Of a stretch of 64,000 nucleotides of DNA, positions 41,843 to 64,000 are shown piece by piece (within the stretch, counting starts at the first letter, position 1; every line of letters starts with the position of its first letter). A model generated the notes under the pieces. It was given only the letters and a program-made list of their open reading frames with translations. It searched no databases and was not told where the DNA came from. This DNA comes from a virus (Duplodnaviria; Heunggongvirae; Uroviricota; Caudoviricetes). The stretch lies in IMG/VR virus record IMGVR_UViG_2778261375_000003, one strand, 5' to 3'. The position numbers and the translations under genes were made by a program.

Positions 41843-41863
41843 TTTTCACTCCATATAGCTAAA

Positions 41864-43798: not shown

Positions 43799-43809
43799 CA
43801 AGCATATCC

Positions 43810-44244: not shown

Positions 44245-44322
44245 GATTTTCCCTAATCAATGTTGTGAAGCCTCATTGTAAGATAAGTAACTTGTCACCC
44301 CGCCCTGCGGACGGGGTGATTA

Positions 44323-46592: not shown

Positions 46593-46948
46593 AGCACCAC
46601 GTCCTGTGTGATAGTTATATCCCTGATACGAATGGATATTTTCAACTTATCAAAAGCATCTCCCTCGGCTACTGACAAGCCAGAAATCGGTATGTCAGGT
46701 AAATCTACCGTCAGTTTTTGCAACAGCATTGCCTCAACCGCAATTTGAACATGCGACAAGTTGGTCGGTTCGTGTTTAAACTGCGGTAAAACATTGCCCC
46801 ATGACGGATCCCCGTATACCTCACCCTGATAAGTGTTTAGCCACTCATATAAACGAGCGCCCCAGGCCTCCTCCTGGGACTCATACGTTTTTACGCCGGA
46901 TAACTCCAGCGTCAGCAAAGGATCAATTTCGTTATTGTTGGCCATCAA
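46589..46948 (-). CDS. Baseplate wedge protein (gpW/gp25-like)
   Basis: 119 aa, coupled between tape-measure-like gene and J-like gene. Confidence 0.5.
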   Translation of the reverse strand: MMANNNEIDPLLTLELSGVKTYESQEEAWGARLYEWLNTYQGEVYGDPSWGNVLPQFKHEPTNLSHVQIAVEAMLLQKLTVDLPDIPISGLSVAEGDAFDKLKISIRIRDITITQDVVL

Positions 46949-49900
46949 TCAACTCTCGCGTAGTCATTCATCAACGGATCATCAATTGACAGTGGTACCG
47001 TGCGCATAACGCCCGGCTGAGGCGTGCTGACCTTTACGACAGTTCCCTGGCCTTTCGCCGAGTCTTTGGTGTGCTCTTCAATCCTGGCAAGCAATGAGGC
47101 CATCTGCGCAAACAGCCGCTTCGTTTCACCATCAAGTGAAACGGTATTATCAGCCAACTGCATTGTCGGCTTGGCACCGGAGCCGCCAAGGTCACTAATA
47201 ACCTGTCCGTCTATCTGCATACGACCGGTTGGTTGCTGCAAATCGTTGGCGGCAGTCGTCACCTTGGACGTGGAGGCTGGTTCAGGCGCATTATTTTTCC
47301 GCATCCCCGGCGAGTTGCGGAGTTTATCGAATAGTCCATCAATCTCCATTTGTGCGCCGAGTTGGTCAAAGTAACTTGAGTTGTTGGCCACCGGACGCGC
47401 CTCTTCAACTGGCATCGGAGTATCAACATACACATTGCCAGCTGCTGTTGCGGTCCCCTTCCCTCGTGCACGTTCTTCGAGCGTTCCCTGAACGACTTCC
47501 CGACGCATACCCCGGCCATTCATGAATTTGTTGACCAGATCGTTAACGCCAACAGCATTGCCGATTTTGTCTACCAGACCGCCTTTCTCAAACGGGCTAT
47601 CACCAGGGGTAAATGCCAGGCCAGTAGACTGATCGATAACAGCGTTATCAGGCAGTGGTCCCCTCACTCCATATTGCGCCCCACCCTGTGCTCCTGCTCC
47701 AGGTGTATAGATTTCACCACCTAAATAGCGAGCACGATGAGTATTGACCTTGATCGCGTACTCACGGTTTTCTTTGGATAAGTCACCTGTGCCTTTTTTC
47801 CACTTATTGATAGTGCCAAACCCAGCGTTATATGCAGTGATGGCCTCGTTTAAGTCTCCATTGGCTTGCTTCAGATACTTGCTCATGAGAAGAGCCGCAG
47901 CTTCTGCCGATTTCACAGGATCAAACGATTCACCTTCAGCTAAGCCAGTCTCTTCACGAGCAATCCCCGTGAACTGAAACATTCCCAGAGCACCGGTTTG
48001 GGATTTTGCATACGGATTACCACCAGATTCAGTTGCAGCAATCGCGTAAAGAGTGCCTTCTGGAAGACCGTATTTATTCTCTAGTTCGGCAAAATACGGA
48101 GCCAACTTATCGAGATTTGCCTTACCTTCAGCGCCAAGACTTCCGACTTTTACATCTAAGTTGCCATTGTTGTAAGTATCCGCAGCTTTCTGAATGTCAT
48201 TCCTGGTGCCAGTAGTATTAAGCGACGATGATGATGAGCTATTTTGACCAATAGCATTATCAATTTTCTGCAACGCGCTATTGCCCGTTTCTACGGCATT
48301 TGCATTGATAATCTGATTGGCAGTTTCTTTAACTGTTTTATTGCTATCTTTCGCCGTATCTAGGGATGCATTTACAACACGAGTGACAATATTAGCCTTT
48401 TTAGGGGTATATTCAGTCTTAGGAGCATTGTCCTCCTGACTTTCTTTAGCTGGTGTTTTTAATTCAGGTGTAACCTCTTTCGCATCCGCTTTGTTGACTA
48501 GCTTTGATGCAACCCAGGCCACAGGGGTGCTCTGAACAGCGGCATCTGCAACCTCACCTGAAAGCTCTTTTGCGGCACTCCATAGATTACTGCCAGCTTC
48601 TTTAATGTATTTCCCTGGGTTCTTAATGAAATCAATTGCACTATCAATTGCATCACTGAAAACCTGTTTCAGGTTATCGACAGTAAAGAAGTTTTTGATG
48701 GCGTCTAATTTTTCGTTCAGGTTCTTTGTTGTGTCACTGAACCATGCTGAAATAGCATCACCAATCTTTGCAGTATAATCACTAAATGTCGTGGATATAG
48801 TATCACCAAGGTTAGAAATATATGTTTCTAAATTGGTAATCCCACTATCAATGGCCTGGGCAATACTTTCCGTCGAAAATGATTGCAACATATTGCCGAT
48901 ATCCTCAAATCCAAGTGATTTGAGAACGCCGCCAATGGCACTGCTAATACCAGATACCAGTCCTCCCATATCGAGAACGTTAGCCAGTGTATAAGCCGCT
49001 TTTTGCTGAAAAGATGGATCTTCCCCATCCTTAAGCCCAAAGGTCCGACGTTGTGCTTCTGTATCATTCCAACCGGTTACCGCATCATAGATACCTCCAG
49101 CCACCGTGCCGACTAGCGGAATTGCGCGTAAAGCCCCCTTTGCAAGAGCCTTAACACCTAGTTTCCCCAATCCCTTAGTTGCAAGTTTTCCGGCACCGCG
49201 AGTAGCCAATTCGCCAGCTTCTTTGGCAGCAGCTTTTTTCCCACCAAAGCCCAATAAGCTTGCAACTTTTTTTATACCTAAAGCGCCTAGTGCCATCGAG
49301 CCAACTTTCTTTAGTACCCCACGGCCAAAAATAAGGGAAGCAATACCACCGGCCCCCTTCCCTAACAGGCTAAATAGTTTGGACAGCAAGCCGCCCTTCT
49401 TTTTCCCGGTGTTTTTGGCTATCTGATCAAGGGCGCTGAGAATCTTGTCATTGCCCTCTTTAATTTCGCTGGTCTGCTCCTGAAGTTCCTGAACCGTCCG
49501 TTTTTGGGTGTTAACCTGAACGACATCGGCACTATTTTGCGATTTACGCCTAAAAAAACCTTTTCTACGGCTGTTATCGTCATTGCCACGAATCACATCG
49601 GCAATAGACTTTCTGGCACCATTAAGCGATCCACCAACTTCTTTTGATATCCCGCCAAGCTCCTTCCCTGCTGCCCACAATGGACCAGCAACGGCATAAC
49701 CTAACGCATCGACGGCACGAGTCTCTGAAGGGTTACCTATGCCTTCAGCTACTTTTGACAGTTTTTTTAATAAACCTGATTCAGCATTTAGACGCTCATC
49801 ATCCTCTTTGCGCCTGGCCTTTTCAGCACGTTCAGCACGGGCATCTTCCGCTGCGGCCTTACTCCCTGACTTTCCAATAAAACGACCACGCGCATCGCGT

Positions 49901-50640
49901 TGGTTTTGGCTTTTTTGCGCACCGCCTTTTTGATCGAACATTTTGCGAGCGTGTTCGGCTGCTTCGGTCCGTTGTGCCTTTATATCCTCTGGTATAGCCT
50001 TCCTGCGTCGTTTTTTACCCTTTGGTGTAGTTGATTTGGCCTGCTGTTCCTGTTGAGCAATGCCCTCCTGAACTACACGAGAAACGTCCCCTAAATTAAG
50101 CCGTTTCATTGCATCAACAATAGGGTCTACTGATGGCGCATTGGCCACAAAGTCTGGCCGGGAATTTTCGATTGTTCGATTTAATGCCGACACACTGCGA
50201 GATACTGGGTCAACCGTTGCAACGCGTTCCCCTTTCAAATCACGATCGAGTTTGACCGTTTCTAACCGCTGTGCTTTAACATCCTCTGTTATTGCCTCTC
50301 TTCGTCTATTTGGGGGATTGTGCGCTGTTGGTGCAGCCTGCTGTTCACGGTTAGTGACTTTGTCCTCCCGTATACGAGAAACGTCCCCTAAATTAAGCCG
50401 TTTCATTGCGTCAACAATAGAGTCCACTGATGGCGCATTGGTCACAAAGTCAGGACGTGAATTTTCGATTGTGCGATTTAATGCCGACACACTGCGAGAG
50501 ACAGGATCAACAGTTGCAACTCGTTCCCCTTTCAAATCTTCAACAGCTTCCCGAATACCTGCAAGCTCTTCCAGCTCTTTCGCGCTGGCGGTTTCAACTG
50601 TCCTTATAACATCGTCAATATTGGCGTTTTTTCTTTCCAT
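46945..50640 (-). CDS. Tape-measure-like protein with lytic transglycosylase (SLT) domain
   Basis: 1231 aa; SLT-like block ...AIAATESGGNPYAKSQTGALGMFQF...AYNAG...; Gly/Ala-rich helical stretches; two copies of an N-terminal repeat of about 55 aa. Confidence 0.6.
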   Translation of the reverse strand: MERKNANIDDVIRTVETASAKELEELAGIREAVEDLKGERVATVDPVSRSVSALNRTIENSRPDFVTNAPSVDSIVDAMKRLNLGDVSRIREDKVTNREQQAAPTAHNPPNRRREAITEDVKAQRLETVKLDRDLKGERVATVDPVSRSVSALNRTIENSRPDFVANAPSVDPIVDAMKRLNLGDVSRVVQEGIAQQEQQAKSTTPKGKKRRRKAIPEDIKAQRTEAAEHARKMFDQKGGAQKSQNQRDARGRFIGKSGSKAAAEDARAERAEKARRKEDDERLNAESGLLKKLSKVAEGIGNPSETRAVDALGYAVAGPLWAAGKELGGISKEVGGSLNGARKSIADVIRGNDDNSRRKGFFRRKSQNSADVVQVNTQKRTVQELQEQTSEIKEGNDKILSALDQIAKNTGKKKGGLLSKLFSLLGKGAGGIASLIFGRGVLKKVGSMALGALGIKKVASLLGFGGKKAAAKEAGELATRGAGKLATKGLGKLGVKALAKGALRAIPLVGTVAGGIYDAVTGWNDTEAQRRTFGLKDGEDPSFQQKAAYTLANVLDMGGLVSGISSAIGGVLKSLGFEDIGNMLQSFSTESIAQAIDSGITNLETYISNLGDTISTTFSDYTAKIGDAISAWFSDTTKNLNEKLDAIKNFFTVDNLKQVFSDAIDSAIDFIKNPGKYIKEAGSNLWSAAKELSGEVADAAVQSTPVAWVASKLVNKADAKEVTPELKTPAKESQEDNAPKTEYTPKKANIVTRVVNASLDTAKDSNKTVKETANQIINANAVETGNSALQKIDNAIGQNSSSSSSLNTTGTRNDIQKAADTYNNGNLDVKVGSLGAEGKANLDKLAPYFAELENKYGLPEGTLYAIAATESGGNPYAKSQTGALGMFQFTGIAREETGLAEGESFDPVKSAEAAALLMSKYLKQANGDLNEAITAYNAGFGTINKWKKGTGDLSKENREYAIKVNTHRARYLGGEIYTPGAGAQGGAQYGVRGPLPDNAVIDQSTGLAFTPGDSPFEKGGLVDKIGNAVGVNDLVNKFMNGRGMRREVVQGTLEERARGKGTATAAGNVYVDTPMPVEEARPVANNSSYFDQLGAQMEIDGLFDKLRNSPGMRKNNAPEPASTSKVTTAANDLQQPTGRMQIDGQVISDLGGSGAKPTMQLADNTVSLDGETKRLFAQMASLLARIEEHTKDSAKGQGTVVKVSTPQPGVMRTVPLSIDDPLMNDYARVD

Positions 50641-50721
50641 GATCTTATCGCCTACCGTTTCGGTTTAAGTTTTTCTTCCAGTTTCTCCAACAGGAAAAAC
50701 GCATAGGATTCAGTAAGCCTT

Positions 50722-51603
50722 TCAGCGTCCTGAATCGGTATACCCCCATACAAAACCAGGTTGGACACTAAGGTCTGATAGCTTTTCAATCCCCACCTGT
50801 GGAATGAAGTCGGTAGCCCGAAAGGGCACCCACAGACGGGTATATGCACCCTCTGTGGACTCCTTTTTATCCTGATTTGGGCATTTATGCGGCGGGAGAC
50901 GAAGACGCATTTCACCTTTATCGATGTAGCACGGTAAACCATGTTCGAGCTTTTCATGAGCCAGTCGGATGTGTGCCGCCAGCTTCATAAATTCAGTATC
51001 AATGGCCATCCGTTTAATCGTTTCATAACGACGCTCAGCCTGATCTTCACGAGTACCGCTAACATCGTTATAAAGCTCACACTGATAAGCGAATTCCCAA
51101 AAACGCAAATCAACGATCGCTTCTTTGAATTCCGCGTCGTCTTCAGGTGGCAATGCTGCACGGCGCATCTCCAGCATTTCCATTGCCCAACCATCAAGCG
51201 GCACGATACGCCATTGATAAGGTACTCCCTCTACAGACACCTCAATATCGTCAATGAAAGGTTCCACTTCCAGGACCTGGATATCTTCAGCCAGAGCATT
51301 CATATCGCAATCGTAATAATGCTCTTTACCGCAATGTTTACAGGTGTAGGTGAATGTCTCGACCGGTGTTTCACGGGAGCCGGTAAATATCCACCATAAC
51401 GCGGTAATCCGGTCCTGCGCCGTCCATGTCAGGGGATCATGTTTCGCGGGTTCAGCAAGCAAGGCTTTTAAATACGCCGTTGTCTGTTGTTCTTGTTCCT
51501 CCGGTGTTATCGAGTTGAAACGCATCGCATCAGCAATATTTGGCTGACGGAACTGGATCAATTCAGTTGGCCGCGATGGTAGCGGGAAAAGAGGTAAAAG
51601 CAT
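50722..51603 (-). CDS. Phage tail-associated hypothetical protein (possible chaperone)
   Basis: 293 aa directly upstream of tape-measure-like gene. Confidence 0.4.
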   Translation of the reverse strand: MLLPLFPLPSRPTELIQFRQPNIADAMRFNSITPEEQEQQTTAYLKALLAEPAKHDPLTWTAQDRITALWWIFTGSRETPVETFTYTCKHCGKEHYYDCDMNALAEDIQVLEVEPFIDDIEVSVEGVPYQWRIVPLDGWAMEMLEMRRAALPPEDDAEFKEAIVDLRFWEFAYQCELYNDVSGTREDQAERRYETIKRMAIDTEFMKLAAHIRLAHEKLEHGLPCYIDKGEMRLRLPPHKCPNQDKKESTEGAYTRLWVPFRATDFIPQVGIEKLSDLSVQPGFVWGYTDSGR

Positions 51604-51617
51604 CCTTGCTCCTTAAT

Positions 51618-52229
51618 TCAAAGAGAAAAGCTAAAGCCCAGAAGGGAAGCCAAAGAACTTGAGGATTGGTTAAACGTGCTGTGCAATGCGAAGGTCATTG
51701 GGAATGACTTAAATTCAGTAACCTGATCTCGCGCATAGGTGACATCGCCGGTAGTGACCGGGAATACCGTCATCTCATTTTCCAGTTTGGTTAAGCCGGA
51801 AGACAGCAACCGATAAATACGCACATTGAGCAAATATTTAGACGGTATATTCCCGGTACCGTCCGGATTGATCACCCGACTTTTTGCCGTCTTAAACCAG
51901 TCCAAAACGAGGCCATCAACGGTATCCCTGACCATCATTGTTATCTGCCCAGGCGAACGCTCCGTTGGTTGAAGGATATTCCCTCCGCCGATTTTAATCG
52001 TTTCATATTCGATGCTGTAATCGTGGTAGGTAATGTCTTTGGCAAAGAAGTCTGCCCCCTCCAGTCCATCAACTTCGACAGAGAACTGCCATCCTTGCGC
52101 GAACAGCATTTTGTTCATGATGATTGACGTCAGCTTACCAACTTCCCGCTCACCAACGCCGGAGCCAAATAATGTCGTCGTTAATGCCGAAGATACATAA
52201 GACTTTACTGAAGCAACATTAAGCCCCAT
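51618..52229 (-). CDS. Phage structural hypothetical protein (possible tube)
   Basis: 203 aa in minus-strand tail module. Confidence 0.35.
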   Translation of the reverse strand: MGLNVASVKSYVSSALTTTLFGSGVGEREVGKLTSIIMNKMLFAQGWQFSVEVDGLEGADFFAKDITYHDYSIEYETIKIGGGNILQPTERSPGQITMMVRDTVDGLVLDWFKTAKSRVINPDGTGNIPSKYLLNVRIYRLLSSGLTKLENEMTVFPVTTGDVTYARDQVTEFKSFPMTFALHSTFNQSSSSLASLLGFSFSL

Positions 52230-52239
52230 ATCAGCCCCC

Positions 52240-52830
<591 letters not shown>

Positions 52831-52886
52831 TTAACAGATTCTACGAGTTGTCATTTGTGACAGTATGCTCGCAATCGTAGTGATTA

Positions 52887-53426
52887 CTACCACCAACTGC
52901 TAGCTTTCTTCTCTCTAGCTTTTCCTTCGCTTTGCAGTAAATCTTTACTTCCTGTAGAAATATTTCTATTTGCATCAGCCTCAGACTGAATTACATCTGT
53001 CTTAGCTGCTCTCTCCTTCAACTCCTGCTCTATAAAATCGTTTTCTCGCTGGACACGAGCCGCTTTTGCTTGCAGTTCGAGCTTCATGCTTTCGAGTTGC
53101 AGCTTGCGAAGCTCATCCTCATAAGCTTGATCTCGCTTCTTGTCATTTGCTAGCTCGGCTTCTCGTTTCGCTCTACGTTCATTTTCTGCAGCAACACGCT
53201 GTTTTTCGCGTGCAGCAGCGGCAGATGCTGCTTTTTCTCTTCTAATACGTTCAGCTTGTGCTTGTTGGCGAATAAGTTCTTTTCTGGCATCCTCAGCTTG
53301 CTGCTCTTTAGCTCGCCCTTCATTTTCCGCTTGAGCAATAGCAGCAATTTGACTTTGCAACGAGTTAGCCAAGGCAGTGCCTACACTAAACGTAGAAAAG
53401 ATTAGAAATAAAATAATTTTATTCAT
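52887..53426 (-). CDS. Secreted coiled-coil protein (Lys/Glu/Ala/Arg-rich)
   Basis: Signal peptide MNKIILFLIFSTFSVGTALA then long charged helical region; AT-rich codon usage. Confidence 0.55.
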   Translation of the reverse strand: MNKIILFLIFSTFSVGTALANSLQSQIAAIAQAENEGRAKEQQAEDARKELIRQQAQAERIRREKAASAAAAREKQRVAAENERRAKREAELANDKKRDQAYEDELRKLQLESMKLELQAKAARVQRENDFIEQELKERAAKTDVIQSEADANRNISTGSKDLLQSEGKAREKKASSWW

Positions 53427-53429
53427 AAA

Positions 53430-53951
53430 TTATTTCTTTTCTGGACAAGTAGCATTTGGCTGAATTCGAGTTTCATTATCTTTAGTTGAAATAAGCACAG
53501 CAAGCCCCGTTGTAAACTGGCATGCTTTACCAACTTGAGTTGAAGTGAACACCTTAGTTCCTTCTTTATAAGTCAGTGAAACACCTTCAACAATTGTTTT
53601 ATCACTAACCAAAGAACCAGCCGCTGCACCAAGAGCCGCACCACCAGTACCGCCAGCTACAGCACCCAGTGTCGATGTGCCTTTAACATTATAACCGGCA
53701 ACGCCCCCAGCAACAGCTCCCAGTACCGCACCAAATGTCTGTGCCGCTTCTTTATTAGCTTTATTATCAACTTTCACTTTAGCTGGAAGCACAGAGATAA
53801 TATTGACTGTCTTTGTTTCCTGCTTCGAATTCAATTGAGCGGTATCATAAACATCGGCAGCATAATCAGCACCGCTAGATTGACACCCAGAAAGAAGAAT
53901 TGCAGATACAACAAGAGCGCATAAAGTATACTTTTTAGACATAAGAATCAT
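53430..53951 (-). CDS. Lipoprotein with glycine-zipper domain (SlyB-like)
   Basis: Lipobox LLSGC; GAVLGAVAGGVAGYNV...GAVAGGTGGAALGAAAGS; start may be 53951 or 53942. Confidence 0.6.
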   Translation of the reverse strand: MILMSKKYTLCALVVSAILLSGCQSSGADYAADVYDTAQLNSKQETKTVNIISVLPAKVKVDNKANKEAAQTFGAVLGAVAGGVAGYNVKGTSTLGAVAGGTGGAALGAAAGSLVSDKTIVEGVSLTYKEGTKVFTSTQVGKACQFTTGLAVLISTKDNETRIQPNATCPEKK

Positions 53952-54563
53952 CCCAGAAAAACAAAAACCGGCGAGAAGTTACCACGAGAACGGAAAGTAA
54001 ACAAGAATACTCCCATTGACTTATATCAATTAATCAACTTTTTATAAGCTATCCCTAACTTATTGTGTATAGCTGAAAAGTCAGAGACAAGTTCACCATC
54101 TGCATTATTTCTTAAGTTAATAGTTTATTGCTAACTTAATTTATGTATCGACTATTGATATCCATCTTAAAGTTACAATATCCCTCTGCATTATTTTTCA
54201 TCACAAATAATATATCTATTGCACTACACTCACCTGCTCTAATAAATTTGTATTTTTAAGTCACAAATGCTATCTTTTCGCATCATATTGACCTTTTAAT
54301 CGTTCAGGCTTATAGTTCCGCCGTCGTAGCAAATTCTGCGACCGGGTTTAGCAGCCTGAATGATTGTGCGGACAGCCGCAGATATCCGATATTGCGGTAT
54401 TTTTGTGTCCGTAAAACCGTGTTACGCCCAAATTATGGTGGGGCGTGATGGGGAGGCTTCGGCCTGCTGGTTTCACAATCGCCAGTCTGCTAACCCCGTC
54501 ACGTCCTGCCACCTGTTTAGCAGCGGGTAGCAGGTTGTTAAACCTGATTGTGAGGCCGTAACT

Positions 54564-54785
54564 ATGGTTAATGCCAATCCTTGCGCACGCCAAGAATTCA
54601 TCTGGCGTTTCTATTCCTGTAAAAAACACCACTATCACTTCGTCATCGCAGCAACAGAAGACGAAGCACGCTCTCAATTGCCTGATGGCCCCTGCATTTT
54701 TACTGCCCGTTTTTCAACTAACTCGCGCAATTCACTTAGTTACTGGAACCTCCCCTTCTCTGCCGACGTTCAGGGGGATTTATGA
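54564..54785 (+). CDS. Icd-like small protein (putative cell division inhibitor family)
   Basis: 73 aa; EFIWRFYS...HFVIAATEDEARSQL...TARF fits remembered Icd-like pattern; gagg RBS; ATGA-coupled to antirepressor. Confidence 0.4.
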   Translation: MVNANPCARQEFIWRFYSCKKHHYHFVIAATEDEARSQLPDGPCIFTARFSTNSRNSLSYWNLPFSADVQGDL

Positions 54786-55825
54786 AAAAACCTCTCGTCA
54801 CCCGTAATGAAATAGCCGAAGCGATCGCCCTGCATACAACCTGTATGCCGACACGGGAGATCCCCGGCGCAATTGCCAACTATTTCATGATAACCAGACG
54901 TTTTTATACCCGAACAGATAAGGCTGTGATCAACAAGCTACTGATAGCCGAGATCAGGGATTATTTGATTGAACAAGGACGTCTACGTTACGCAACAGTG
55001 GCAGCAGAAATGAGAAAGGAGGCGCGCAGAATGACCGGTAATAATTTGAATGTTGAAAAACCAGCACCTGTTGCTTCAGCTACGCCATCACCAGCTGTGA
55101 ATGTTATCTCCAACACTGGAGACACAATCGACAGCCAGACACTGTTAAAGATGGTCAATGAAGCTCGTAAGTTATGTGGGGAACCAGAGGTTCGGAACAA
55201 CAAATTCATCGAAAAAATACTCGACGAATTAGAAGGTGAGGACGGTTACACAAAAAGTGCAACCGTGCCGCCAGGTGGCGGTACGCCTATGGTTGTCATA
55301 ACCATGACCTACAAACAAGCCCTGCGAGTCGCCGCACGCGAATCAAAAGCCGTCCGCCGTTCGCTGATCGACAAACTGGAAGAATTGCAGCAGGCAAACT
55401 CCCCTGCCCCATCGATCCCCCAAACATTACCAGAAGCTCTACGCCTGGCTGCCGAGTTGGCAGAACAGAAAATGCAGCTGGAACAACAGCTGGTGGCCGC
55501 CGCTCCTAAAGTCGATTTTGCCGACCGGGTATCAGTGGCTAATGGAATCCTGATCGGGAACTTTGCAAAGGTCGTTGGACTTAAGCAAAACGCCCTTTTC
55601 TCATGGTTGCGCCAGAACGGCATTCTCATGGCTTTTGGTGCGCGCAAAAACGTACCGCGCCAACAGTACATCAACGCCGGGTATTTCACGGTGAAAGAAG
55701 TGGTGCTGGATGATGAAAATGGCTACCAGATACGGCTGACGCCCCAATTAACGGGTAAAGGCCAGCAGTGGTTAACTCGCAAGCTACTTGATGCTGGTTT
55801 GTTAAAACCAGTAGCAATAGGTTAA
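54782..55825 (+). CDS. Phage antirepressor with KilA-C/ANT C-terminal domain
   Basis: C-terminal 130 aa (LPEALRLAAELAEQK...GYFTVKEVV...TGKGQQWL) match the ANT/KilA-C pattern and are paralogous to next gene. Confidence 0.7.
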   Translation: MKKPLVTRNEIAEAIALHTTCMPTREIPGAIANYFMITRRFYTRTDKAVINKLLIAEIRDYLIEQGRLRYATVAAEMRKEARRMTGNNLNVEKPAPVASATPSPAVNVISNTGDTIDSQTLLKMVNEARKLCGEPEVRNNKFIEKILDELEGEDGYTKSATVPPGGGTPMVVITMTYKQALRVAARESKAVRRSLIDKLEELQQANSPAPSIPQTLPEALRLAAELAEQKMQLEQQLVAAAPKVDFADRVSVANGILIGNFAKVVGLKQNALFSWLRQNGILMAFGARKNVPRQQYINAGYFTVKEVVLDDENGYQIRLTPQLTGKGQQWLTRKLLDAGLLKPVAIG

Positions 55826-55837
55826 CAAAAGAAAAAA

Positions 55838-55863
55838 ACCTGCCAGCAAACTGGCAGGTTTCT
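55838..55863 (+). terminator. Hairpin terminator after first antirepressor
   Basis: acctgccagcaaactggcaggt hairpin followed by ttct; weak U-tract. Confidence 0.45.
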
Positions 55864-55989
55864 GAGCAGATCGACCAACCCGATCTGGATCGAGTTAGAA
55901 AAATTTGCTCTAATAAATTTCGTTTTCTAAGTGCAAAGAATCACCATTTCGAGCTGGTGATTGAAGGTTGATGCAAATTTGGAGAAAAA

Positions 55990-56790
55990 ATGCAACAAAC
56001 ATTCAATGCGGATATGAATATATCAAACCTTCATCAAAATGTCGATCCTTCAACCACTCTGCCTGTTATTTGTGGTGTTGAAATTACGACCGACCGCGCT
56101 GGCCGTTACAACCTTAATGCTCTACACAGAGCGAGCGGACTCGGTGCCCATAAAGCGCCAGCTCAATGGCTAAGAACGCTGTCAGCCAAACAGCTCATCG
56201 AAGAGCTTGAAAAAGAAACTATGCAGAATTGCATAGTTTCGTTCGAAGGCCGTGGCGGCGGCACTTTTGCCCATGAATTGCTCGCTGTGGAGTACGCAGG
56301 CTGGATTTCTCCCGCATTTCGGCTGAAGGTAAACCAGACATTTATCGACTATCGAGCCGGAAGATTACAACCAGCTATTCCGCAGAGTCTCCCTGAAGCT
56401 CTCCGTTTGGCTGCCGACCTGGCAGAGCAAAAGCAACGGCTGGAGCAAAAAATGCTTATGGATGCACCTAAAGTCGAATTCGCCGAACGCGTTGCTACCG
56501 CTAGCGGGGTTCTAATCGGCAACTATGCCAAAGTGCTCGGCCTGGGCCAAAACTATCTCTTCACCTGGTTGCGTGATAACGGAATTCTGATCGCAACCGG
56601 TGAACGCAGGAACGTCCCCAAACAAGAATACATATCTCGTGGGTATTTCACCCTTAAAGAAACCGTGATCGATACAAGCAATGGAAGCAGGATTTCTTTC
56701 ACGACTCGTATAACCGGCAAAGGTCAGCAGTGGCTGATGAAGCGATTGCTTGATGCTGGTGTGCTGGTACCTGTCGCGGCAACGCGCTAA
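55990..56790 (+). CDS. Phage antirepressor, KilA-N plus KilA-C domains
   Basis: N-terminal KilA-N-like region (...NLNALHRASG...AQWLR...FEGRGGGTFAHELLAVEYAGWISP...); C-terminal ANT domain paralogous to previous gene; ggagaaaaa RBS. Confidence 0.75.
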   Translation: MQQTFNADMNISNLHQNVDPSTTLPVICGVEITTDRAGRYNLNALHRASGLGAHKAPAQWLRTLSAKQLIEELEKETMQNCIVSFEGRGGGTFAHELLAVEYAGWISPAFRLKVNQTFIDYRAGRLQPAIPQSLPEALRLAADLAEQKQRLEQKMLMDAPKVEFAERVATASGVLIGNYAKVLGLGQNYLFTWLRDNGILIATGERRNVPKQEYISRGYFTLKETVIDTSNGSRISFTTRITGKGQQWLMKRLLDAGVLVPVAATR

Positions 56791-56819
56791 CAGACGTAGT
56801 AAGAACCACCAGCATTGTA

Positions 56820-57665
56820 ATGCTGGCTAAAGTCACTTTCCTGAGCTGTATAACGATGAGCGATTTTACTTTTTCTGGCTATGAATTGGCCTGCTTTGTA
56901 ACACACTCCGGTCTATCCCGTAGCGCCGGGCATATCCTGTCGCAATGTGCAAATCTCGCGGCAACAACCAGTGAATACTTCATTCACAAGCCTCACCGCC
57001 TGATCGCGGCAGAAACTGGTTATAGCCAATCAACCGTCGTTCGTGCATTCCGTGAAGCTGTAAACAAAGGAATTCTGTCTGTAGAGATTGTTATCGGCGA
57101 TCACCGTGAACGTCGCGCTAACCTGTACCGGTTTACACCATCCTTTTTGGCCTTCGCACAACAAGCCAAAAATGCGCTGATAGAAAGCAAATTAAAGATC
57201 TCTTCAGCGGCAACCAAGGTTAAAGCTGTTCTCGCTAAGACATTGGCTTTATTTAATTTTTTATCCACACCCCCATGTCAAAATGATACCCCCTCCCCCT
57301 GTCAGGATGACGTGGCAATAAAGAATAAGAAGTCACAAGTTAAAAAAACAAAAAGATCAGTTTCCGGCGGTGCCGGAACGACCAGCCTCAAAAAATTGAC
57401 TTCATGGATCGCTAAGGCAAAAGCAAAGGCTGACAATCTGCGGTTATCCAAAAAACGCACTCAAAAACATGAGTTCAAGCAGAAAGTAGAGGCGGCTGCG
57501 CGGAAATATGCTTACCTGAAGAACAAGCGTTCGCCTGATATTGGCGGGATATCAAACTTCGATAACCTACCGCATTGCATGACGGTAAACGAAGCTCTTA
57601 ATGCGGTTTTAGCCAAAAATAAAGATAACGAACAATGGGGTATACCGGCAGGATTCAGAGGGTAA
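56820..57665 (+). CDS. Winged-HTH DNA-binding protein (possible replication/regulatory)
   Basis: HTH-like GYSQSTVVRAFREAVNKGIL; basic low-complexity middle; C-terminus ...WGIPAGFRG echoes YdaU C-terminus; start may be 56856. Confidence 0.45.
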   Translation: MLAKVTFLSCITMSDFTFSGYELACFVTHSGLSRSAGHILSQCANLAATTSEYFIHKPHRLIAAETGYSQSTVVRAFREAVNKGILSVEIVIGDHRERRANLYRFTPSFLAFAQQAKNALIESKLKISSAATKVKAVLAKTLALFNFLSTPPCQNDTPSPCQDDVAIKNKKSQVKKTKRSVSGGAGTTSLKKLTSWIAKAKAKADNLRLSKKRTQKHEFKQKVEAAARKYAYLKNKRSPDIGGISNFDNLPHCMTVNEALNAVLAKNKDNEQWGIPAGFRG

Positions 57666-57833
57666 TGAATTGCTCTAATTATAACCATGCATACTTTCAA
57701 CACCTCTAGTTTGCCATGAGGCAAACTCATAGGTGTCCTGGTAAGAGGACACTGTTGCCAAAACTGGACGCCCCATTATTGCAATTAATAAACAACTAAC
57801 GGACAATTCTACCTAACAATAAGTGGAGTTAAC

Positions 57834-58538
57834 ATGTTGAACCGAAGAACATTTAATGTATTCTGCGATGAATCCTGTCACCTACTAAATGATCATAATA
57901 AAGTCATGGTATTGGGTGCGCTTTGGTGTCCCGGCACTATCACAAAAAAAATTGCTAGAGACATCAAGGAATTAAAATTAAAACACAATCTAAAACCTGA
58001 TTTCGAAATCAAGTGGACTAAAGTATCTGCGTCCAAAGTTGAATTTTACTTAGATGTCGTAGATTACTTCTTCAGCAACCCTGCATTGCGCTTTAGAGGT
58101 GTTGTTGTTCCTGATAAAGAGCAACTGGACCATGCTCGATTCCATCAAGATCATAATACTTTCTATTATAAGATGTTTTTTTATGTCTTAAAAAACATAA
58201 TAGAAAGTAACAACACATACAATATCTACCTAGATATAAAAGATACTTTAGGTATTGAAAAAATTGAGAAATTAAGAGGGGTTCTTCACAATGATCGCTA
58301 TGATTACAATCATGAGTCGATAAACAGAATTCAACATATACGATCTCATGAAGTGCAGCAATTGCAGCTAACGGATCTTTTCATTGGCGCGTTAGGCTAC
58401 GTTCATCGAGGAATGAATAGCAACGCGGGAAAAATCCAAGTCATAAACAGAATAAAATCACATACAAACAGGGAGTTACTAAAAAGTACTCTTCCAACAG
58501 AAAGTAAATTTAATATTTTCGTGTGGGAGGCTCGCTGA
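57834..58538 (+). CDS. DUF3800-family protein, gene 1 of AT-rich two-gene cassette
   Basis: N-terminal FCDES motif typical of DUF3800; gtggag RBS; AT-rich codon usage; stop overlaps next start (ATGA). Confidence 0.6.
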   Translation: MLNRRTFNVFCDESCHLLNDHNKVMVLGALWCPGTITKKIARDIKELKLKHNLKPDFEIKWTKVSASKVEFYLDVVDYFFSNPALRFRGVVVPDKEQLDHARFHQDHNTFYYKMFFYVLKNIIESNNTYNIYLDIKDTLGIEKIEKLRGVLHNDRYDYNHESINRIQHIRSHEVQQLQLTDLFIGALGYVHRGMNSNAGKIQVINRIKSHTNRELLKSTLPTESKFNIFVWEAR

Positions 58539-59002
58539 TGCTTCAAATGCCAGATTTATTGTACTTCAATGGAAGTTGGCAAGAGTATATAGACGATGTA
58601 TATGATGTTGTTAGAGAAGATATTTTAATATCTAATATAACGTTTAAGGGTCTCCCTGTTCGATTACGTTATTCACCGGAATATAATGGGAAAGAATTCG
58701 GATTTTGGCATTTAGTATCAGAGGGAAAAATAGAAGAAGAACGTATACCCGATCTTGAACGGTGCAAGCGAATTCGCTGGATCGCGCACATGATAAGGAA
58801 TTATAACCATTGCGATATATCATGTTGGTCTGAAAGACGAGGACCAACTGAAGAGTGGGTAATCTGGAATGAGTGTGAAAACTACGTTGTTGTGCTATCC
58901 GCACGTAGAGACTATTGGCTTCTCAAAACAGCCTATGTTGTAACCTATGACAGTAAAATCAGAACACTCAAACAAAGCAGAAAAAGAGCACTTGGGACAT
59001 AA
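58538..59002 (+). CDS. Hypothetical protein with H/C cluster, gene 2 of cassette
   Basis: 154 aa from MLQMPDLLYF; gggagg RBS inside upstream gene; HMIRNYNHCDISCW cluster; no family recognised. Confidence 0.5.
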   Translation: MLQMPDLLYFNGSWQEYIDDVYDVVREDILISNITFKGLPVRLRYSPEYNGKEFGFWHLVSEGKIEEERIPDLERCKRIRWIAHMIRNYNHCDISCWSERRGPTEEWVIWNECENYVVVLSARRDYWLLKTAYVVTYDSKIRTLKQSRKRALGT

Positions 59003-59167
59003 AAAGCTGAACCCGACACATATTGCTATGTATCGGGTTCGATCGCTCTTTCTACACATGGTAGATGAGTAATGCAAATCTAACCGATCTACTTTAGCTT
59101 TTCAATAGCTAGCTATAACTTTCCGCACATATTCTTCTGATAATTCCGGGAGAGCGGTTGGGTTTTT

Positions 59168-59464
59168 TCATGCTTTTCTGCGCAGAGAAGCACACTTATT
59201 CAGCAATAATAAGTGCAATTCTTTGTTATCACTAAGTATTTCTACACACCAATATCGTAACGTGTTCACTTCAAGTGTAGCCAGCACCTTATGTCGAAAA
59301 GCCCCCTCCCCTACACATAACGATGGCTGACATTCTGCTAAGGCACATAACCATGTATTGGCATCATAGAGAATCCAATAATGCTCCTCGGAAATAGTTT
59401 TGCATCCAATTATTTCGAATCTTCGTTCTATCGTTTCAGGAGAGTATGAAAAATCAATTTCCAT
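59168..59464 (-). CDS. Hypothetical small protein (AT-rich island)
   Basis: 98-aa ORF convergent with DUF3800 cassette; several Cys. Confidence 0.4.
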   Translation of the reverse strand: MEIDFSYSPETIERRFEIIGCKTISEEHYWILYDANTWLCALAECQPSLCVGEGAFRHKVLATLEVNTLRYWCVEILSDNKELHLLLLNKCASLRRKA

Positions 59465-59504
59465 AATATGCTCAAAATTTCGCTATATTGACATGATTTA
59501 AGCA

Positions 59505-59530
59505 CAAAAAAGCTCCCGAAGGAGCTTTAA
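59505..59530 (-). terminator. Bidirectional terminator at end of minus-strand structural block
   Basis: aaaaaagctcccgaaggagcttt; on minus strand the hairpin is followed by tttttt; lies 20 nt after the stop at 59548. Confidence 0.7.
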
Positions 59531-59547
59531 AATACAAGGGATGACTC

Positions 59548-60057
59548 TTAATCCCACTCAATCCAGTTGTAGACGATACGAAGTGACGGGCGCACAGCGG
59601 CAGTCACATCTTCGGTACTAAAGTCGATTGCATCACTGTAGATTTTGCAGTCCAACATTTCAATTGTTGTAGCAGCTTTTGTCACAGCGTTAACCCCGGA
59701 AGATTTGGATTCAGGGGTCGCAGCCATCGTGATATCAACATAGTCCTTCGCCGCAATGCGATCTTTAATGAACTGAAGAATATCGCCTTCGATAGTCTCC
59801 ACGCACTGGACCTGGATTTCCCCAGAGTTTCGAATTGGACCGTGCTGGTTGAACTTCACACCATTCGGACCATAGTCCTCCACATCCTCGCGGGTCATTT
59901 CAGGAATTTGCGACGTGCGAACCAGTACGCTGATATCTTCATGGCCTGCAAAAGTGAGCTGGAATTCAGAAGATACCAGTCGTTCGCCTTTGGCCGCGTT
60001 GGCAGTATAGCGGCCCTTAATAAATTTACGGTTTCCCTTAGTGTTATTGTGCCCCAT
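59548..60057 (-). CDS. Phage structural protein (possible tail tube)
   Basis: 169 aa at the 3' end of a minus-strand structural operon. Confidence 0.35.
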   Translation of the reverse strand: MGHNNTKGNRKFIKGRYTANAAKGERLVSSEFQLTFAGHEDISVLVRTSQIPEMTREDVEDYGPNGVKFNQHGPIRNSGEIQVQCVETIEGDILQFIKDRIAAKDYVDITMAATPESKSSGVNAVTKAATTIEMLDCKIYSDAIDFSTEDVTAAVRPSLRIVYNWIEWD

Positions 60058-60068
60058 ATAAAATCCTT

Positions 60069-60650
60069 TTACTGGAACGCCCGAACAATATCGGAGCTGT
60101 TATATATCGAAGAACCGGTCAACTGGAGGTTGACGGTGTTTTTCAGGAAATGCCCATTGCTGTCCCTGGGCGCATCGAGATCGAAACTTATGTCCTGGAT
60201 AGCGACATCAATGATGTTGATCCGGCGACCAATGTTTAGCGTCACACGCTCCGGGATTCGACCACCAATGCTGGCATCTTTAAGTTCCGGGCTAATCATC
60301 GCTGACAATGCGGCGATAGCTCCTGAAACCTCAGTGAATGGGTCAAACAAAGCGATGAAAGTTACTGGCAGCGTGAAAGTCGGCGGTGTTCCCCCCTCCC
60401 AAACCATTAAGCTGTTCCAACGGGCCACCGACGTTGTTTCAGTACCAACCTGCGCAAAACCACTGAAAGCACCAGCAACAGACCCCATGGACATACCGGT
60501 AAACGGCGCTTCCCAATTCTGGGCCATGTTCATTGCTGCCCCCTGGCTGATATATCCGGTAACCTGGTACTGAGAGTTCGTTAAAGTAACTTTCAGAAAT
60601 GGCGATACACCGTCAGCCTGGCTGTAAACCCCATAAGGTATAGGTGCCAT
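60069..60650 (-). CDS. Phage structural hypothetical protein
   Basis: 193 aa, Gly/Ser/Ala-rich. Confidence 0.35.
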   Translation of the reverse strand: MAPIPYGVYSQADGVSPFLKVTLTNSQYQVTGYISQGAAMNMAQNWEAPFTGMSMGSVAGAFSGFAQVGTETTSVARWNSLMVWEGGTPPTFTLPVTFIALFDPFTEVSGAIAALSAMISPELKDASIGGRIPERVTLNIGRRINIIDVAIQDISFDLDAPRDSNGHFLKNTVNLQLTGSSIYNSSDIVRAFQ

Positions 60651-60685
60651 TCAAGTTAAAGGCCGGAGTTCTCCGGCCTCCTCCT

Positions 60686-61501
60686 TTAGCCAAGGCGCTT
60701 ACGGCGCAGTTTCATTGACTTTTTGCGGGCAAGTTTTGCCGCGCCGGTCTGGGCTTTTCGACGCGCTTTTTTCAGCGCCGATTTTTGAGCCGCAGTCAGA
60801 CGTTTTTTACGCAGGCGTTTACGGATGAGTTTGATCTCACCGTTACGAACAACCTTCTTAAATGCTTCAGTCAGCATTTCATCAGAAGTGCCAGCAACAA
60901 CAAACGCCGCTTCCAGTTCGTCGCGGTCGTCGCTATCTAAACCAGCGATAGAGGCACCAACATCAGCAGCTGCGTCGTCGTCTTCATCGTCAGCCAGTGC
61001 TTCGATCAGGTCATCATCTACACCGCATGCTGCGAGGAAGTCAGCAACATTTGCCCATGCTTCGTTATAGGCATCGTCCTGTTCTTCTGTAACTTCGGAG
61101 TCGTCGTCATCAGAGATACCAGCGATAGCCTGAACGAAACCATCAAGGGAGTCGAAAGTCAGATCACCGCTATCAGCCCAGGAGAAAACGGCGTCGGCCG
61201 CATCACTCAACGCATTCTGCATAGCACTTCGATTTGCAGCTTCCAGAATCATCTGGTGCGCCTGTTCGACGGTCCATTCTTTACCGTCTTTCCCTTCCAG
61301 GATTTGCTCTGGAGCCGGGGCAGATGGAACGTTATCGTTAGTCTGTGCCGCCGGTTCCGGATTATTATTAATAACCGGATCTGTTGGCGGTTCGGCGCTT
61401 GCTCGGGCAGACTCCATCAGCTGCACAGGATCAGAGTTCAAAGCGAAACGGGACAGTCCATTCCCCAAAAATGCCCCGGATTGAAAAAAGTTTTTGCTCA
61501 T
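60686..61501 (-). CDS. Acidic protein with highly basic C-terminal tail
   Basis: 271 aa; Asp/Glu-rich body then about 50-aa Lys/Arg-rich tail. Confidence 0.4.
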   Translation of the reverse strand: MSKNFFQSGAFLGNGLSRFALNSDPVQLMESARASAEPPTDPVINNNPEPAAQTNDNVPSAPAPEQILEGKDGKEWTVEQAHQMILEAANRSAMQNALSDAADAVFSWADSGDLTFDSLDGFVQAIAGISDDDDSEVTEEQDDAYNEAWANVADFLAACGVDDDLIEALADDEDDDAAADVGASIAGLDSDDRDELEAAFVVAGTSDEMLTEAFKKVVRNGEIKLIRKRLRKKRLTAAQKSALKKARRKAQTGAAKLARKKSMKLRRKRLG

Positions 61502-61510
61502 TGTATTCCC

Positions 61511-63100
61511 TTACTTAATAAGCAGCGGTACGCCCTGGATACGACGGGCTACGCCAGTCGGGCAGCAGGCCCAGACTACTTCCCATTTATCGAATTCCGC
61601 CTGCGTAACTTTCAGCACATACGGTTCTGTACCGTCAGCATCGGGATCACGAGGAGCCACCAGAGCGCCGGAGGCGACAAAGCGATCTAAAAGTTTGGTC
61701 ATCCCTTTAGTCAGGCCAGCCGCAGTAATACCGTCCGGGCTATGCTTCATCTGTCGGGCTAACTGGACAAAGAAACGGCTGATTGCATTCATCAGGGATG
61801 GGACGTGCTGGAAGTGCAGATAGTTATCCTGCGTGCAGCAAGTTAAAGCATCGTCGATGATCATCTGGCCAGAGGTGCCAACAGATACTTTATTGAGACG
61901 GCCCTTGACCATTGCTTCTTCGTCCGGGGTATCTTCCGGATACAGCGGTTGAATTGACGCACGAGCAATGACGGCACGTTCTTCACCAGCCGGTGAGTAA
62001 TGCCAACCGCCGACATCAGAGTTTTTCTTGACGCCACGAGCTTTCGCCGCATACGCCGCGCCAGACAGACCGAAGACCACACGGGATTGGGTCCATTTGT
62101 CTTTGCAGGAGAACGGGTAGTGATAGACAGAACAGCTTACATAATCGGTACCAAGTAAACCGGTACCCTCAACAGCTGTTAGTGCTTCTGCGTACCTTAA
62201 TGTCGGTTTGACATCAAAGAAGCCATCAATCAGGCGATCTGCACAGATTTTACCTAATGCGGTGATAGCCGCATTGTCATAGCAGCCCAGGCCAAGAACA
62301 GCGGTGTACATGTACGGCGCATTGTTCAGCACTTTCACCGCACGCAGGTACGCAGCGGTTGAGATTTTCGACTGATCACCGTTGGTACCACCAGTGAACG
62401 CCAACGATTTTTTGTTTGTTACTTTCGCTGTAGAAATCAGATCTTCATTAACAACCGCGCGCAGATATTTAGAACGAGCTTCCAGAGCCGTAGGCAGATA
62501 ACACAAGCGGCCCATGTCATCTTTCGCTTCTTCCGCCAAAGACACAGTGTGTGTCTCCAGGGTCGTTACCACGCCGAGCGAAGTCGTCTGGGTCAGTTTT
62601 AAGAGGAAGCGTTCATTACCCGCGCTGTCCGCTGTTGCCGTTTCGATGGTTAACTCTCGGGTAGGTGAAATACACGGATCACCATCATCAACGTAGATAG
62701 CAAAGGCTTCGCCACTATCAAGTTCAATTTCAGAACCGTATGGCAACGCACTGTAAGCCGGTTCGCCTGATTCATCGAACATAATAATCGGGAACTTCGC
62801 ATCATCCGGAACAGCGCGAACAACATAACCAGATGTTTGCTGAATAGCTTCGTATACATGGCGAATTGGTTCGAACTGTGAGCCGGAAGACGGCTTCAGC
62901 GGTTCGCCGAGAACATCTTCGTAATTGGACTCAGTAACCGCAAGAACAGTAAACGGCTTGCCACGCGCAAATACGCCAATACCAGCCCACAAGCTGCTAT
63001 TTAATGCAACACCGGTAGATAACGTCGCATCGGCATTGATCGGGCTAACCGCGACGCCGGATGCATTACCTAATGACTGTTGAATTGAATATTGAGACAT
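61511..63100 (-). CDS. Large phage structural protein (possible tail sheath)
   Basis: 529 aa; N-terminal region loosely resembles recalled P2 FI-type sheath N-termini; weak assignment. Confidence 0.35.
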   Translation of the reverse strand: MSQYSIQQSLGNASGVAVSPINADATLSTGVALNSSLWAGIGVFARGKPFTVLAVTESNYEDVLGEPLKPSSGSQFEPIRHVYEAIQQTSGYVVRAVPDDAKFPIIMFDESGEPAYSALPYGSEIELDSGEAFAIYVDDGDPCISPTRELTIETATADSAGNERFLLKLTQTTSLGVVTTLETHTVSLAEEAKDDMGRLCYLPTALEARSKYLRAVVNEDLISTAKVTNKKSLAFTGGTNGDQSKISTAAYLRAVKVLNNAPYMYTAVLGLGCYDNAAITALGKICADRLIDGFFDVKPTLRYAEALTAVEGTGLLGTDYVSCSVYHYPFSCKDKWTQSRVVFGLSGAAYAAKARGVKKNSDVGGWHYSPAGEERAVIARASIQPLYPEDTPDEEAMVKGRLNKVSVGTSGQMIIDDALTCCTQDNYLHFQHVPSLMNAISRFFVQLARQMKHSPDGITAAGLTKGMTKLLDRFVASGALVAPRDPDADGTEPYVLKVTQAEFDKWEVVWACCPTGVARRIQGVPLLIK

Positions 63101-63160
63101 AACTTTCCCTGTTATGCGCCCCGCACGGGGGCGCTATGTTAAACGGAGAACTTCCCCTGA

Positions 63161-63928
63161 TTACTCAGAGTCACCGGCATCAATCGTGTCGCCGCTAATG
63201 AAGTTAAGCCCGCCTTTTTTGGCCATTGTCAGCGTTACACGAGTGAAGTAATCAGCGCCGTTGCGTGGGTGCATATCGTTGATAGCCGAACCCCACAGTG
63301 TGGTACGGTTGACCAGCGCCGGAGTGGTCGGATGCTGGAACGGGATAGCCGGGACAGCATCACCAGTCACGAAGCCTGCTTTACCCGGATTTTCATCACG
63401 GACGTAGCACAGCACATCCATCGAGCTGAACTGAATGTTCTCTGTCGTTAAGTTCTTACAAATACCAGCAGGTACTTCGTACACTTTCACGTTACCGAAC
63501 AGGGTACCGATGTAGTGAACATACGGAGTCTGGATATAGTCTTCGGCTGGCTGGAAGAAATCCTTCGGCAACTGTTTGAAGAAAGATGCTGCATCAGCAC
63601 CAGCAAACATCCCCATCGCACCAGAAGATTTAACGCGCTCAATAATGTCGCGATATACAGTCTGGAATTTGCCACGAATGATGGTTGCCCATACATCAAA
63701 GGACTGGTTAACCGGCAGAGCGATGTCAAAGGTGTCGGTCGCAAGAGTACGCCAGATCATGATGCGAAGACGCAGCATATCCTGTTCATGAGACAGGTAT
63801 TCCTTCAGGGTGCGGAACTGTAGGGAACCCAGGTCCAGACCAAATTCACGCTGTGCTTCATACGCCGCCTGTACCGTGTGCTCAGCCGCGATAACGAACT
63901 GGCTTGGGAACAGGGTGTATTTCTTCAT
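63161..63928 (-). CDS. Phage structural hypothetical protein, frame open to window edge
   Basis: ORF from Met at 63928; same frame stays open up to base 64000 with no stop, so the protein may start beyond the window. Confidence 0.35.
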   Translation of the reverse strand: MKKYTLFPSQFVIAAEHTVQAAYEAQREFGLDLGSLQFRTLKEYLSHEQDMLRLRIMIWRTLATDTFDIALPVNQSFDVWATIIRGKFQTVYRDIIERVKSSGAMGMFAGADAASFFKQLPKDFFQPAEDYIQTPYVHYIGTLFGNVKVYEVPAGICKNLTTENIQFSSMDVLCYVRDENPGKAGFVTGDAVPAIPFQHPTTPALVNRTTLWGSAINDMHPRNGADYFTRVTLTMAKKGGLNFISGDTIDAGDSE

Positions 63929-64000
63929 TTCGTGGTTGATCAGCGGGATCAGCTCAGGAGCGGCTTCAATATTGATTTCCGTCTCAATTGCGATCTCAGT

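Follow-up and report, generated by a model that had tools for sequence, protein, structure and literature searches.

The window analysed here, a 64,000-nucleotide stretch of IMG/VR virus record IMGVR_UViG_2778261375_000003 (Caudoviricetes), ends in five tightly packed minus-strand genes at 59548-64000. An initial annotation made from the letters alone had recognized these genes, the open frame of the last one at base 64000 and a strong terminator closing the block, and our map of open reading frames (ORFs) agrees with that description. Compared with the annotated regions of phages P1 and P7, the genes stand in the order 23-22-21-pmgG-bplB, followed by the terminator and then by pmgF, all on the minus strand. 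We identify the block as the promoter-distal portion of the LP23 late operon, in a temperate phage-plasmid of the P1/P7 type (genus Punavirus), and we consider this identification close to certain. The features of the block are as follows.

63161-64000, minus: gene 23, major capsid protein; the C-terminal 279 codons (residues 290-568) lie in the window, and the frame is stop-free to base 64000
61511-63100, minus: gene 22, contractile tail sheath protein, 529 aa (P1/P7 identity, PDB, PHROG)
60686-61501, minus: gene 21, 271 aa (P1/P7 identity, PHROG 1053)
60069-60650, minus: pmgG, hexameric tube-linking (baseplate-to-tube junction) protein, 193 aa (P1/P7 identity, PDB, PHROG)
59548-60057, minus: bplB, major tail tube protein, 169 aa (P1/P7 identity, PDB, PHROG)
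59528-59509, minus: intrinsic terminator, ending the 23-22-21-pmgG-bplB transcription unit (terminator scan)
59168-59464, minus: pmgF, 98 aa, a sixth same-strand gene, downstream of the terminator

The gaps between the five genes measure 60, 9, 35 and 11 nt. Each of the five proteins has the length of its P1/P7 orthologue (for gp23, over the visible residues 290-568), with identities of 91-100%, and P1 structures in the PDB match four of the five (8JAN, 8JAJ, 9AY5/9VZK and 9UKM; gp23 over its 279 visible residues). The visible part of gp23 is 100% identical to both P1 and P7 gp23, and it matches Gp23 of 9UKM and the C-terminal half of PHROG 1014, a 567-position family, at E = 6.8e-129. The 529-aa protein previously put forward as a possible sheath is gp22 (99.1% identical to P1 and 98.1% to P7); its residues 1-529 match Gp22 of 8JAJ/8JAN, a sheath with a solved structure, and PHROG 1036 (tail sheath) at E = 1.9e-229. 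PmgG, which is closer to P7 (97.4%) than to P1 (91.2%), matches PmgG of 9AY5/9VZK over residues 1-193 and PHROG 1114 at E = 1.5e-80. BplB is 100% identical to P7 and 99.4% to P1, and it matches BplB of 8JAN over residues 1-169 and PHROG 1120 (tail tube) at E = 8.6e-83. Because the gene at the window end encodes the major capsid protein, the late operon combines head and tail genes and is not purely a tail block.

The terminator is a hairpin, AAAGCTCCTTCGGGAGCTTT followed by TTTTGTG, that starts 19 nt past the stop of bplB. Its stem-loop, AAAGCTCC-UUCG-GGAGCTTT plus a T run, has an 8-bp stem, a UUCG loop and a folding energy of -15.3 kcal/mol, and the 83-nt spacer that holds it is identical to P1 at every base. 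Beyond it, PmgF is 100% identical to P1 PmgF, and the P1 annotation gives pmgF its own predicted promoters.

The surroundings tell the same story. The P1 and P7 records both read rlfA, rlfB, pmgF, bplB, pmgG, 21, 22, 23, LP23, parS, parB, parA. In a megablast search of a phage collection, P1-like phages were the only matches for 53400-64000: P7 (99% coverage, 97.8% DNA identity), JL22 (100% coverage, 97.2%) and P1 (92% coverage, 98.0%). Extension past 64 kb, which the initial annotation had proposed as a check, was possible in the source contig (NOEJ01000003.1, 271,099 bp, of draft whole-genome shotgun (WGS) assembly GCA_002517405.1; window position x is record position x + 88480), from which locus L013 carries the sequence to window-equivalent 73100. 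There, gene 23 runs in full over 63161-64867 and encodes a 568-aa protein identical to P1 gp23, an exact 19-nt copy of the Lpa-type late promoter LP23 (AAGTGACTTTCAATAAAAT) lies at window-equivalent 64919-64937, and parS, parB, parA, repA and more P1 genes follow.

Two points qualify this identification: a Pfam scan of six proteins, all five operon proteins included, gave zero matches, and LP23 lies outside the window, being seen in the source contig only. Because Pfam has no model that matches the five proteins, the operon was assigned from PHROGs, from sequence matches in the PDB and from its near-identity with P1. Annotation by profile hidden Markov models, likewise proposed at the outset, therefore succeeded in part, with PHROG matches for all five proteins (PHROG 1053 being of unknown function) and none in Pfam. 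Nothing contradicts the identification of the block. The operon is already known and structurally characterised, and the genes are ordinary genes of a P1/P7-like phage. The main value of this assignment is correct annotation, since three "modules" that resemble separate elements become one P1/P7-like phage-plasmid, and structures have already been determined for its sheath, tube, tube adaptor and capsid proteins.

The roles of these products are known from studies of P1. By cryo-electron microscopy (cryo-EM), BplB forms the tail tube and gp22 forms 53 sheath rings (PMC10304247); the tube comprises ~52-53 stacked BplB hexamers, the count varying between studies (PMC10304247), and BplB was assigned to the tube density in bioRxiv 10.1101/2025.07.21.665459 as well. 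Tub, encoded in the tail module at 41-53 kb, initiates the tube; PmgG, a hexamer, is the tube-linking protein and serves as adaptor between the tube and the trimeric gp6 hub; and the T=13 capsid is built of gp23, with an HK97-like fold (PMC12810830; bioRxiv 10.1101/2025.07.21.665459). Cleavage of gp23 occurs between E120 and S121, and pmgG is essential, its knockouts having no tails (PMC9024508). CRISPR interference found bplB, pmgG, 21, 22 and 23 essential and pmgF non-essential (PMC10695390).

By analogy with this published work, we expect that the operon would be transcribed late in lytic growth from LP23, between parS and gene 23. Its gp23 would lose the N-terminal ~120 residues and then form the T=13 capsid, while the inner tail tube would consist of stacked BplB hexamers grown on a Tub hexamer. 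That hexamer would rest on a PmgG hexamer, which would fit the sixfold tube to the trimeric gp6 hub, and gp22 would polymerise round the tube as the contractile sheath. The arrangement recalls the contractile tail core of T4, whose gp18, gp19 and gp48 are structural counterparts of gp22, BplB and PmgG (PMC9024508; bioRxiv 10.1101/2025.07.21.665459; PMC10304247). Unlike this structural likeness, a sequence-level family match is absent: Pfam gives none, and the general sheath family PHROG 23 matches weakly (E = 1.6e-06). P1 differs further in having an extra tube-initiator ring, Tub, without a gp54 counterpart (PMC9024508).

Two structural blocks and the DNA between them

The late operon is separated from the tail module at 41-53 kb by DNA that had been described as an accessory island. 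Both regions are resolved into the following features.

42221-53426, minus: tail module with the S constant part, R, 16, bplA, pmgA, sit, pmgB, tub, pmgC and upf50.0 (DNA matches, Pfam, identity)
44275-44293: LPs-like late-promoter site (late-promoter pattern search)
52838-52856: LPsit-like late-promoter site (late-promoter pattern search)
53430-59002, plus (upf50.5 minus): the 'accessory island', P1-type backbone (P1/P7 annotation, identity, Rfam, Pfam)
54310-54362: C4 RNA a1b1 targets (Rfam c4-a1b1)
54431-54516: C4 antisense RNA of immI (Rfam C4)
54782-55825, plus: ant1/2, with icd (immI; Pfam ANT)
55990-56790, plus: kilA, lytic replicon (Pfam KilA-N)
56820-57665, plus: repL with oriL, lytic replicon
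within 53430-59002, plus: rlfA and rlfB (P1/P7 annotation)

Positions 42203-64000 are collinear with P1/P7-like genomes throughout, and phage phi456 is 100% identical over 42203-50000. In the tail module we found Pfam matches to Phage_P1_Gp16 and Phage_P1_tail_fiber_R, and PmgB, Tub and PmgC are 97-99.5% identical to their counterparts. The proteins of the island are 94-100% identical to P1, with Pfam matches to ANT, KilA-N and DUF3800. At 52887-53951, between pmgC and immI, two minus-strand genes for exported proteins occupy the place of upf50.0 and upf50.5 in P7, where P1 has the superimmunity genes simABC. The upf50.0 product is a DUF5384 protein with a signal peptide; that of upf50.5 is a lipoprotein whose weak TraT-like match falls below threshold.

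The DNA between the two structural blocks is the phage's own immI region and lytic replicon, not foreign cargo. The initial annotation had suggested that the block could be the sheath and tube part of a second prophage, split from its tape measure by cargo; the single element stands, and the cargo does not. Judged from sequence comparison, the late operon and the 41-53 kb tail module belong to the same P1-like phage. In the virion, BplB, Tub and PmgG are stacked on one another and PmgA is bound to PmgG. Because Tub, Sit, PmgA, BplA and gp16 touch products of the operon in the virion, the two blocks (59.5-64 kb and 41-53 kb) supply interlocking components of a single tail.

The block had also been thought to belong possibly to another element, and the ~6 kb of non-structural plus-strand genes between it and the sit module, together with its own terminator, could be read as marks of a third one, either another prophage or a tailocin unrelated to the tail module. 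However, 42203-64000 is collinear with single P1-like genomes (phi456 over 42203-50000; P7 and JL22 over 53400-64000), the intervening genes are P1 immI and the lytic replicon in canonical order, and products of the block contact Tub, Sit and PmgA of the other block in the solved virion. A third element has in our judgement practically no chance of being correct, and a tailocin specifically is excluded because the block includes a capsid gene. Head genes of an unrelated element, named in the initial annotation as the refuting outcome, were found only in part: the fifth gene does encode a capsid protein, but one of the same phage as the tail module. Synteny with Mu-like or P2-like phages, another comparison proposed at the outset, was not borne out, in that all DNA matches for 53400-64000 are P1-like and no P2 or Mu Pfam families occur. 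We accordingly rejected a Mu-like or P2-like prophage; as in P1, immI and the lytic replicon lie between the sheath and tube genes and the tape measure.

At the gene level, the closest comparison is with P1 itself (NC_005856), whose bplB-pmgG-21-22-23 (P1_gp054 to gp058) have the same order, lengths, spacing and flanks, with an identical terminator and, in the source contig, an identical LP23. The window differs from P1 in that PmgG is only 91% identical, upf50.0/upf50.5 replace simABC upstream of immI, and Sit carries an insertion of 99 aa. In P7 (NC_050152) the operon is annotated as upf52.7-upf53.3-upf54.2-upf55.8-upf57.5, and the same lipoprotein genes lie beside immI; by contrast, Ant1 has an identity of only 90.5%, and for PmgF, RlfB and RepL the nearer phage is P1. 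In its P1-like part, the window reads as a P1/P7 mosaic.

Gene names require some care in such comparisons. The P7 RefSeq record NC_050152.1 (locus L016, 15513-15869) applies the name 'bplB' to the equivalent of pmgA, and bplB of P1 is the 169-aa tail tube gene.

The Sit tape-measure/transglycosylase (46945-50640) is 1231 aa long, compared with 1140 aa for P1 Sit, owing to a 99-aa insertion that follows residue 34 and has the motif DLKGERVATVDPVSRSVSAL repeated at its ends. Phage phi456 has the same DNA at 100% identity. Tail length, and hence the number of gp22 and BplB rings, might be changed by this insertion. The S constant part contains a 222-bp tandem repeat (42522-43003; 2.2 copies, 92% matches) that corresponds to the repeated elements b1 and b2 annotated in P1 S.

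Domain architecture and conservation of gp21

Gene 21 is the only gene of the operon without an assigned role. Its product is 96.7% identical to P1 and 97.8% to P7, and it matches PHROG 1053, which has no known function. The initial annotation had noticed an acidic protein with a basic tail, and the 271-aa gp21 has exactly this composition: residues 71-215 have an isoelectric point (pI) of 4.05, with 41 D/E against 5 K/R, and residues 216-271, the basic tail, have a pI of 12.0, with 25 K/R against 1 D/E. In an AlphaFold2 model (mean predicted local distance difference test score, pLDDT, 65.6), the N-terminal residues 1-70 are disordered, residues 78-205 form an acidic helical bundle (pLDDT ~82-87 over 90-200), and residues 237-269 form basic helices. 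A PDB sequence search with gp21 returned no match, nor did we find a fold or sequence match to known chaperones. Although gene 21 is essential in P1, its product appears neither in the proteome table of the virion (PMC9024508) nor in the lists of proteins seen by cryo-EM (PMC12810830; bioRxiv 10.1101/2025.07.21.665459). The P1 record labels gp21 "baseplate or tail tube" on the basis of old amber-mutant phenotypes. The RefSeq product name 'tail tube protein', given to both gp16 and gp21, is outdated with respect to the cryo-EM assignments.

A search of a large protein collection yielded 86 clusters of gp21 homologues, none of which has a Pfam domain. Homologues on long contigs lie mostly on contigs of ~85-100 kb, the size of P1-like elements, and their hosts include Enterobacterales, Vibrio, Plesiomonas and even Mailhella. 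Across these clusters, gp21 appears confined to P1-like elements. In the alignment, the invariant and near-invariant positions cluster in the C-terminal basic tail, with the consensus KVVRNG.VKLIRKR.RK.RLSAAQK.ALKKARRKA.T.AAKLARKKSMKLR.KRG. The position of the gene between the sheath gene and the PmgG and tube genes is conserved, distant relatives included; two of these keep the order capsid, (small gene), sheath, gp21 homologue, PmgG-like, tube-like.

This combination of features suggests that gp21 is probably a tail or baseplate assembly factor. More tentatively, we infer that it may be a chaperone of tail assembly, not retained in the finished virion. Under such a model, the acidic helical domain and the conserved basic tail would together hold on to the tape measure, the tube subunits or both while the tube is being initiated. 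The conserved architecture and position make gp21 a defined experimental target.

The joint with the resident prophage

The window as a whole is not one P1 genome, a possibility that we considered and rejected: positions 1-41.7 kb belong to a different prophage, on the plus strand. The boundary between this resident myovirus prophage and the P1-like DNA falls at a tail-fibre invertible segment, arranged as follows.

40037 onward, plus: tail-fibre constant part of the prophage, reading inward
40382-40405: inverted cix/pix-type crossover site, CTCGAAAACCTTGGTTTGGGAGAA
40387-42219: 1.83 kb tail-fibre invertible segment
42203-42228: inverted cix/pix-type crossover site, TTCTCCCAAACCAAGGTATTGGATAA
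43798 down to 42221, minus: tail-fibre constant part of P1 S, reading inward

Both flanks of the segment are thus inward-reading tail-fibre constant parts. The normal arrangement has an invertase gene on one flank, pinE in a related chromosomal prophage and cin in P7. Using the 146-aa assembly protein of the segment as a query, we found a second copy ~95 kb away (record NOEJ01000003.1, 224308-226140; locus L026, 5624-7456), in the order yebT, rsmF, yebV, yebW, pphA, pin, [segment], cin, lydC, lydA, lydB, hdf, darA onward. In the contig, the two segments are thus direct copies that enclose a whole P1-like genome (~93.6 kb plus the segment).

From one crossover site to the other, no base differs between the copies; their sole mismatch is in an outer half-site. 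Reading all four sites, we found that the outer half-site at the S constant part of P1, Sc(P1), equals that of P7 cixR and the one at cin that of P7 cixL, and that those at the prophage constant part, Sc(prophage), and at pin equal those of a chromosomal prophage. In the assembled contig, both junctions expected of a recombinant are present, and the outer half-sites switch at precisely the central dinucleotide of each crossover site. Elsewhere, on chromosomes and plasmids, the invertible segment by itself reaches no more than 97.2% identity.

With P1-like DNA flanked on both sides by chromosomal prophage DNA, the block could be part of a decayed, non-functional P1 remnant fixed in the chromosome, and gene loss is known in some integrated P1-like elements (PMC10879196). 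Yet every gene examined is full length and free of frameshifts, with 91-100% identity to P1/P7; the element also retains LP23, the terminator, the C4 RNA, par and rep; and the ~93.6 kb between the repeat copies is the full size of a P1 genome. We consider a decayed remnant very improbable.

Whether the P1-like element is integrated is a separate matter. The linkage across the 1.83 kb repeats is known here from the assembled draft contig alone, and its structure fits equally well a cointegrate, formed by an invertase or by homologous recombination, and an assembler threading through a collapsed repeat. In the second case, the 1.83 kb segment would exist in near-identical form on a free P1-like plasmid and in a chromosomal prophage, and a short-read assembler would have strung chromosome, repeat, plasmid, repeat and chromosome into one path. 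We lean toward such an artefact, to which we give a slightly better than even chance, because the copies are identical between the crossover sites, as expected of a collapsed repeat used twice, because the record is a draft WGS contig, and because none of 5426 complete Escherichia coli genomes holds the whole 39500-44500 stretch across the prophage/P1 junction. P1-like elements are also normally plasmids, an identical gp22 being found on contigs of 20-200 kb in 371 of 485 collection blocks (by longest contig), and strain APEC20/16 has similar segments on both its chromosome and a P1-like plasmid. On the other side, the two junctions are jointly consistent with a single reciprocal exchange, integrated P1-like prophages beside resident prophages are known (PMC10879196), and the complete chromosome of strain APEC17 carries P1-like DNA. 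Even if the joint were an artefact, the two elements would share a segment whose identity stops exactly at the crossover dinucleotides, and site-specific exchange of the cassette is therefore implied.

The alternative, which we regard as possible but doubtful, is that the P1-like phage-plasmid is truly integrated, a Cin/Pin-family invertase having joined a cix site of the P1 C-segment to the equivalent site of the prophage segment. Intermolecular recombination of this kind would yield, in order, the prophage tail-fibre gene, the segment, the P1 genome (~93.6 kb), the segment, pin and the chromosome. A few P1-like prophages have been described as integrated beside resident prophages and recombinases, the cause of integration being left open (Pfeifer and Rocha 2024, PMC10879196). 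Those cases likewise show a full-size element with par and rep beside a resident prophage and recombinase genes in a chromosomal contig; here, by comparison, the junctions can be read to the base as the crossover sites of a twice-present invertible segment, in a draft contig. Our literature search on Cin-mediated integration of P1-like elements found nothing relevant. If true, such integration would provide a base-resolved mechanism for integrated P1-like prophages that adjoin resident prophages, and it would attach a receptor-binding cassette of prophage origin to the constant part of the P1 tail fibre. The source contig suggests that tail-fibre invertible segments may act as portable recombination sites, which could link a phage-plasmid to a resident prophage.

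Two further lines were set aside. The uniqueness of the 644-aa S protein had been taken as a sign that the right-hand site is a novel joint; we withdrew this argument because the joint between Sc(P1) and the segment occurs in the integrated and free-plasmid configurations alike. The APEC17 chromosome is not a junction of the same type, its S-U-U'-Sv'-cin region being normal. In this E. coli strain (locus L017, NZ_CP178203.1 3550724-3551836), the porin gene ompC is annotated inside the P1-like stretch.

The resident prophage at 1-41700 carries Rac-like lambdoid early genes (recE, recT and replication genes) at ~2.1-19.4 kb. Its myovirus structural module, at ~18.6-41.7 kb, resembles vB_EcoM-611R5 and SEN34 and ends with baseplate J, a DUF2612 gene, a tail-fibre gene and two oppositely oriented fibre-assembly genes.

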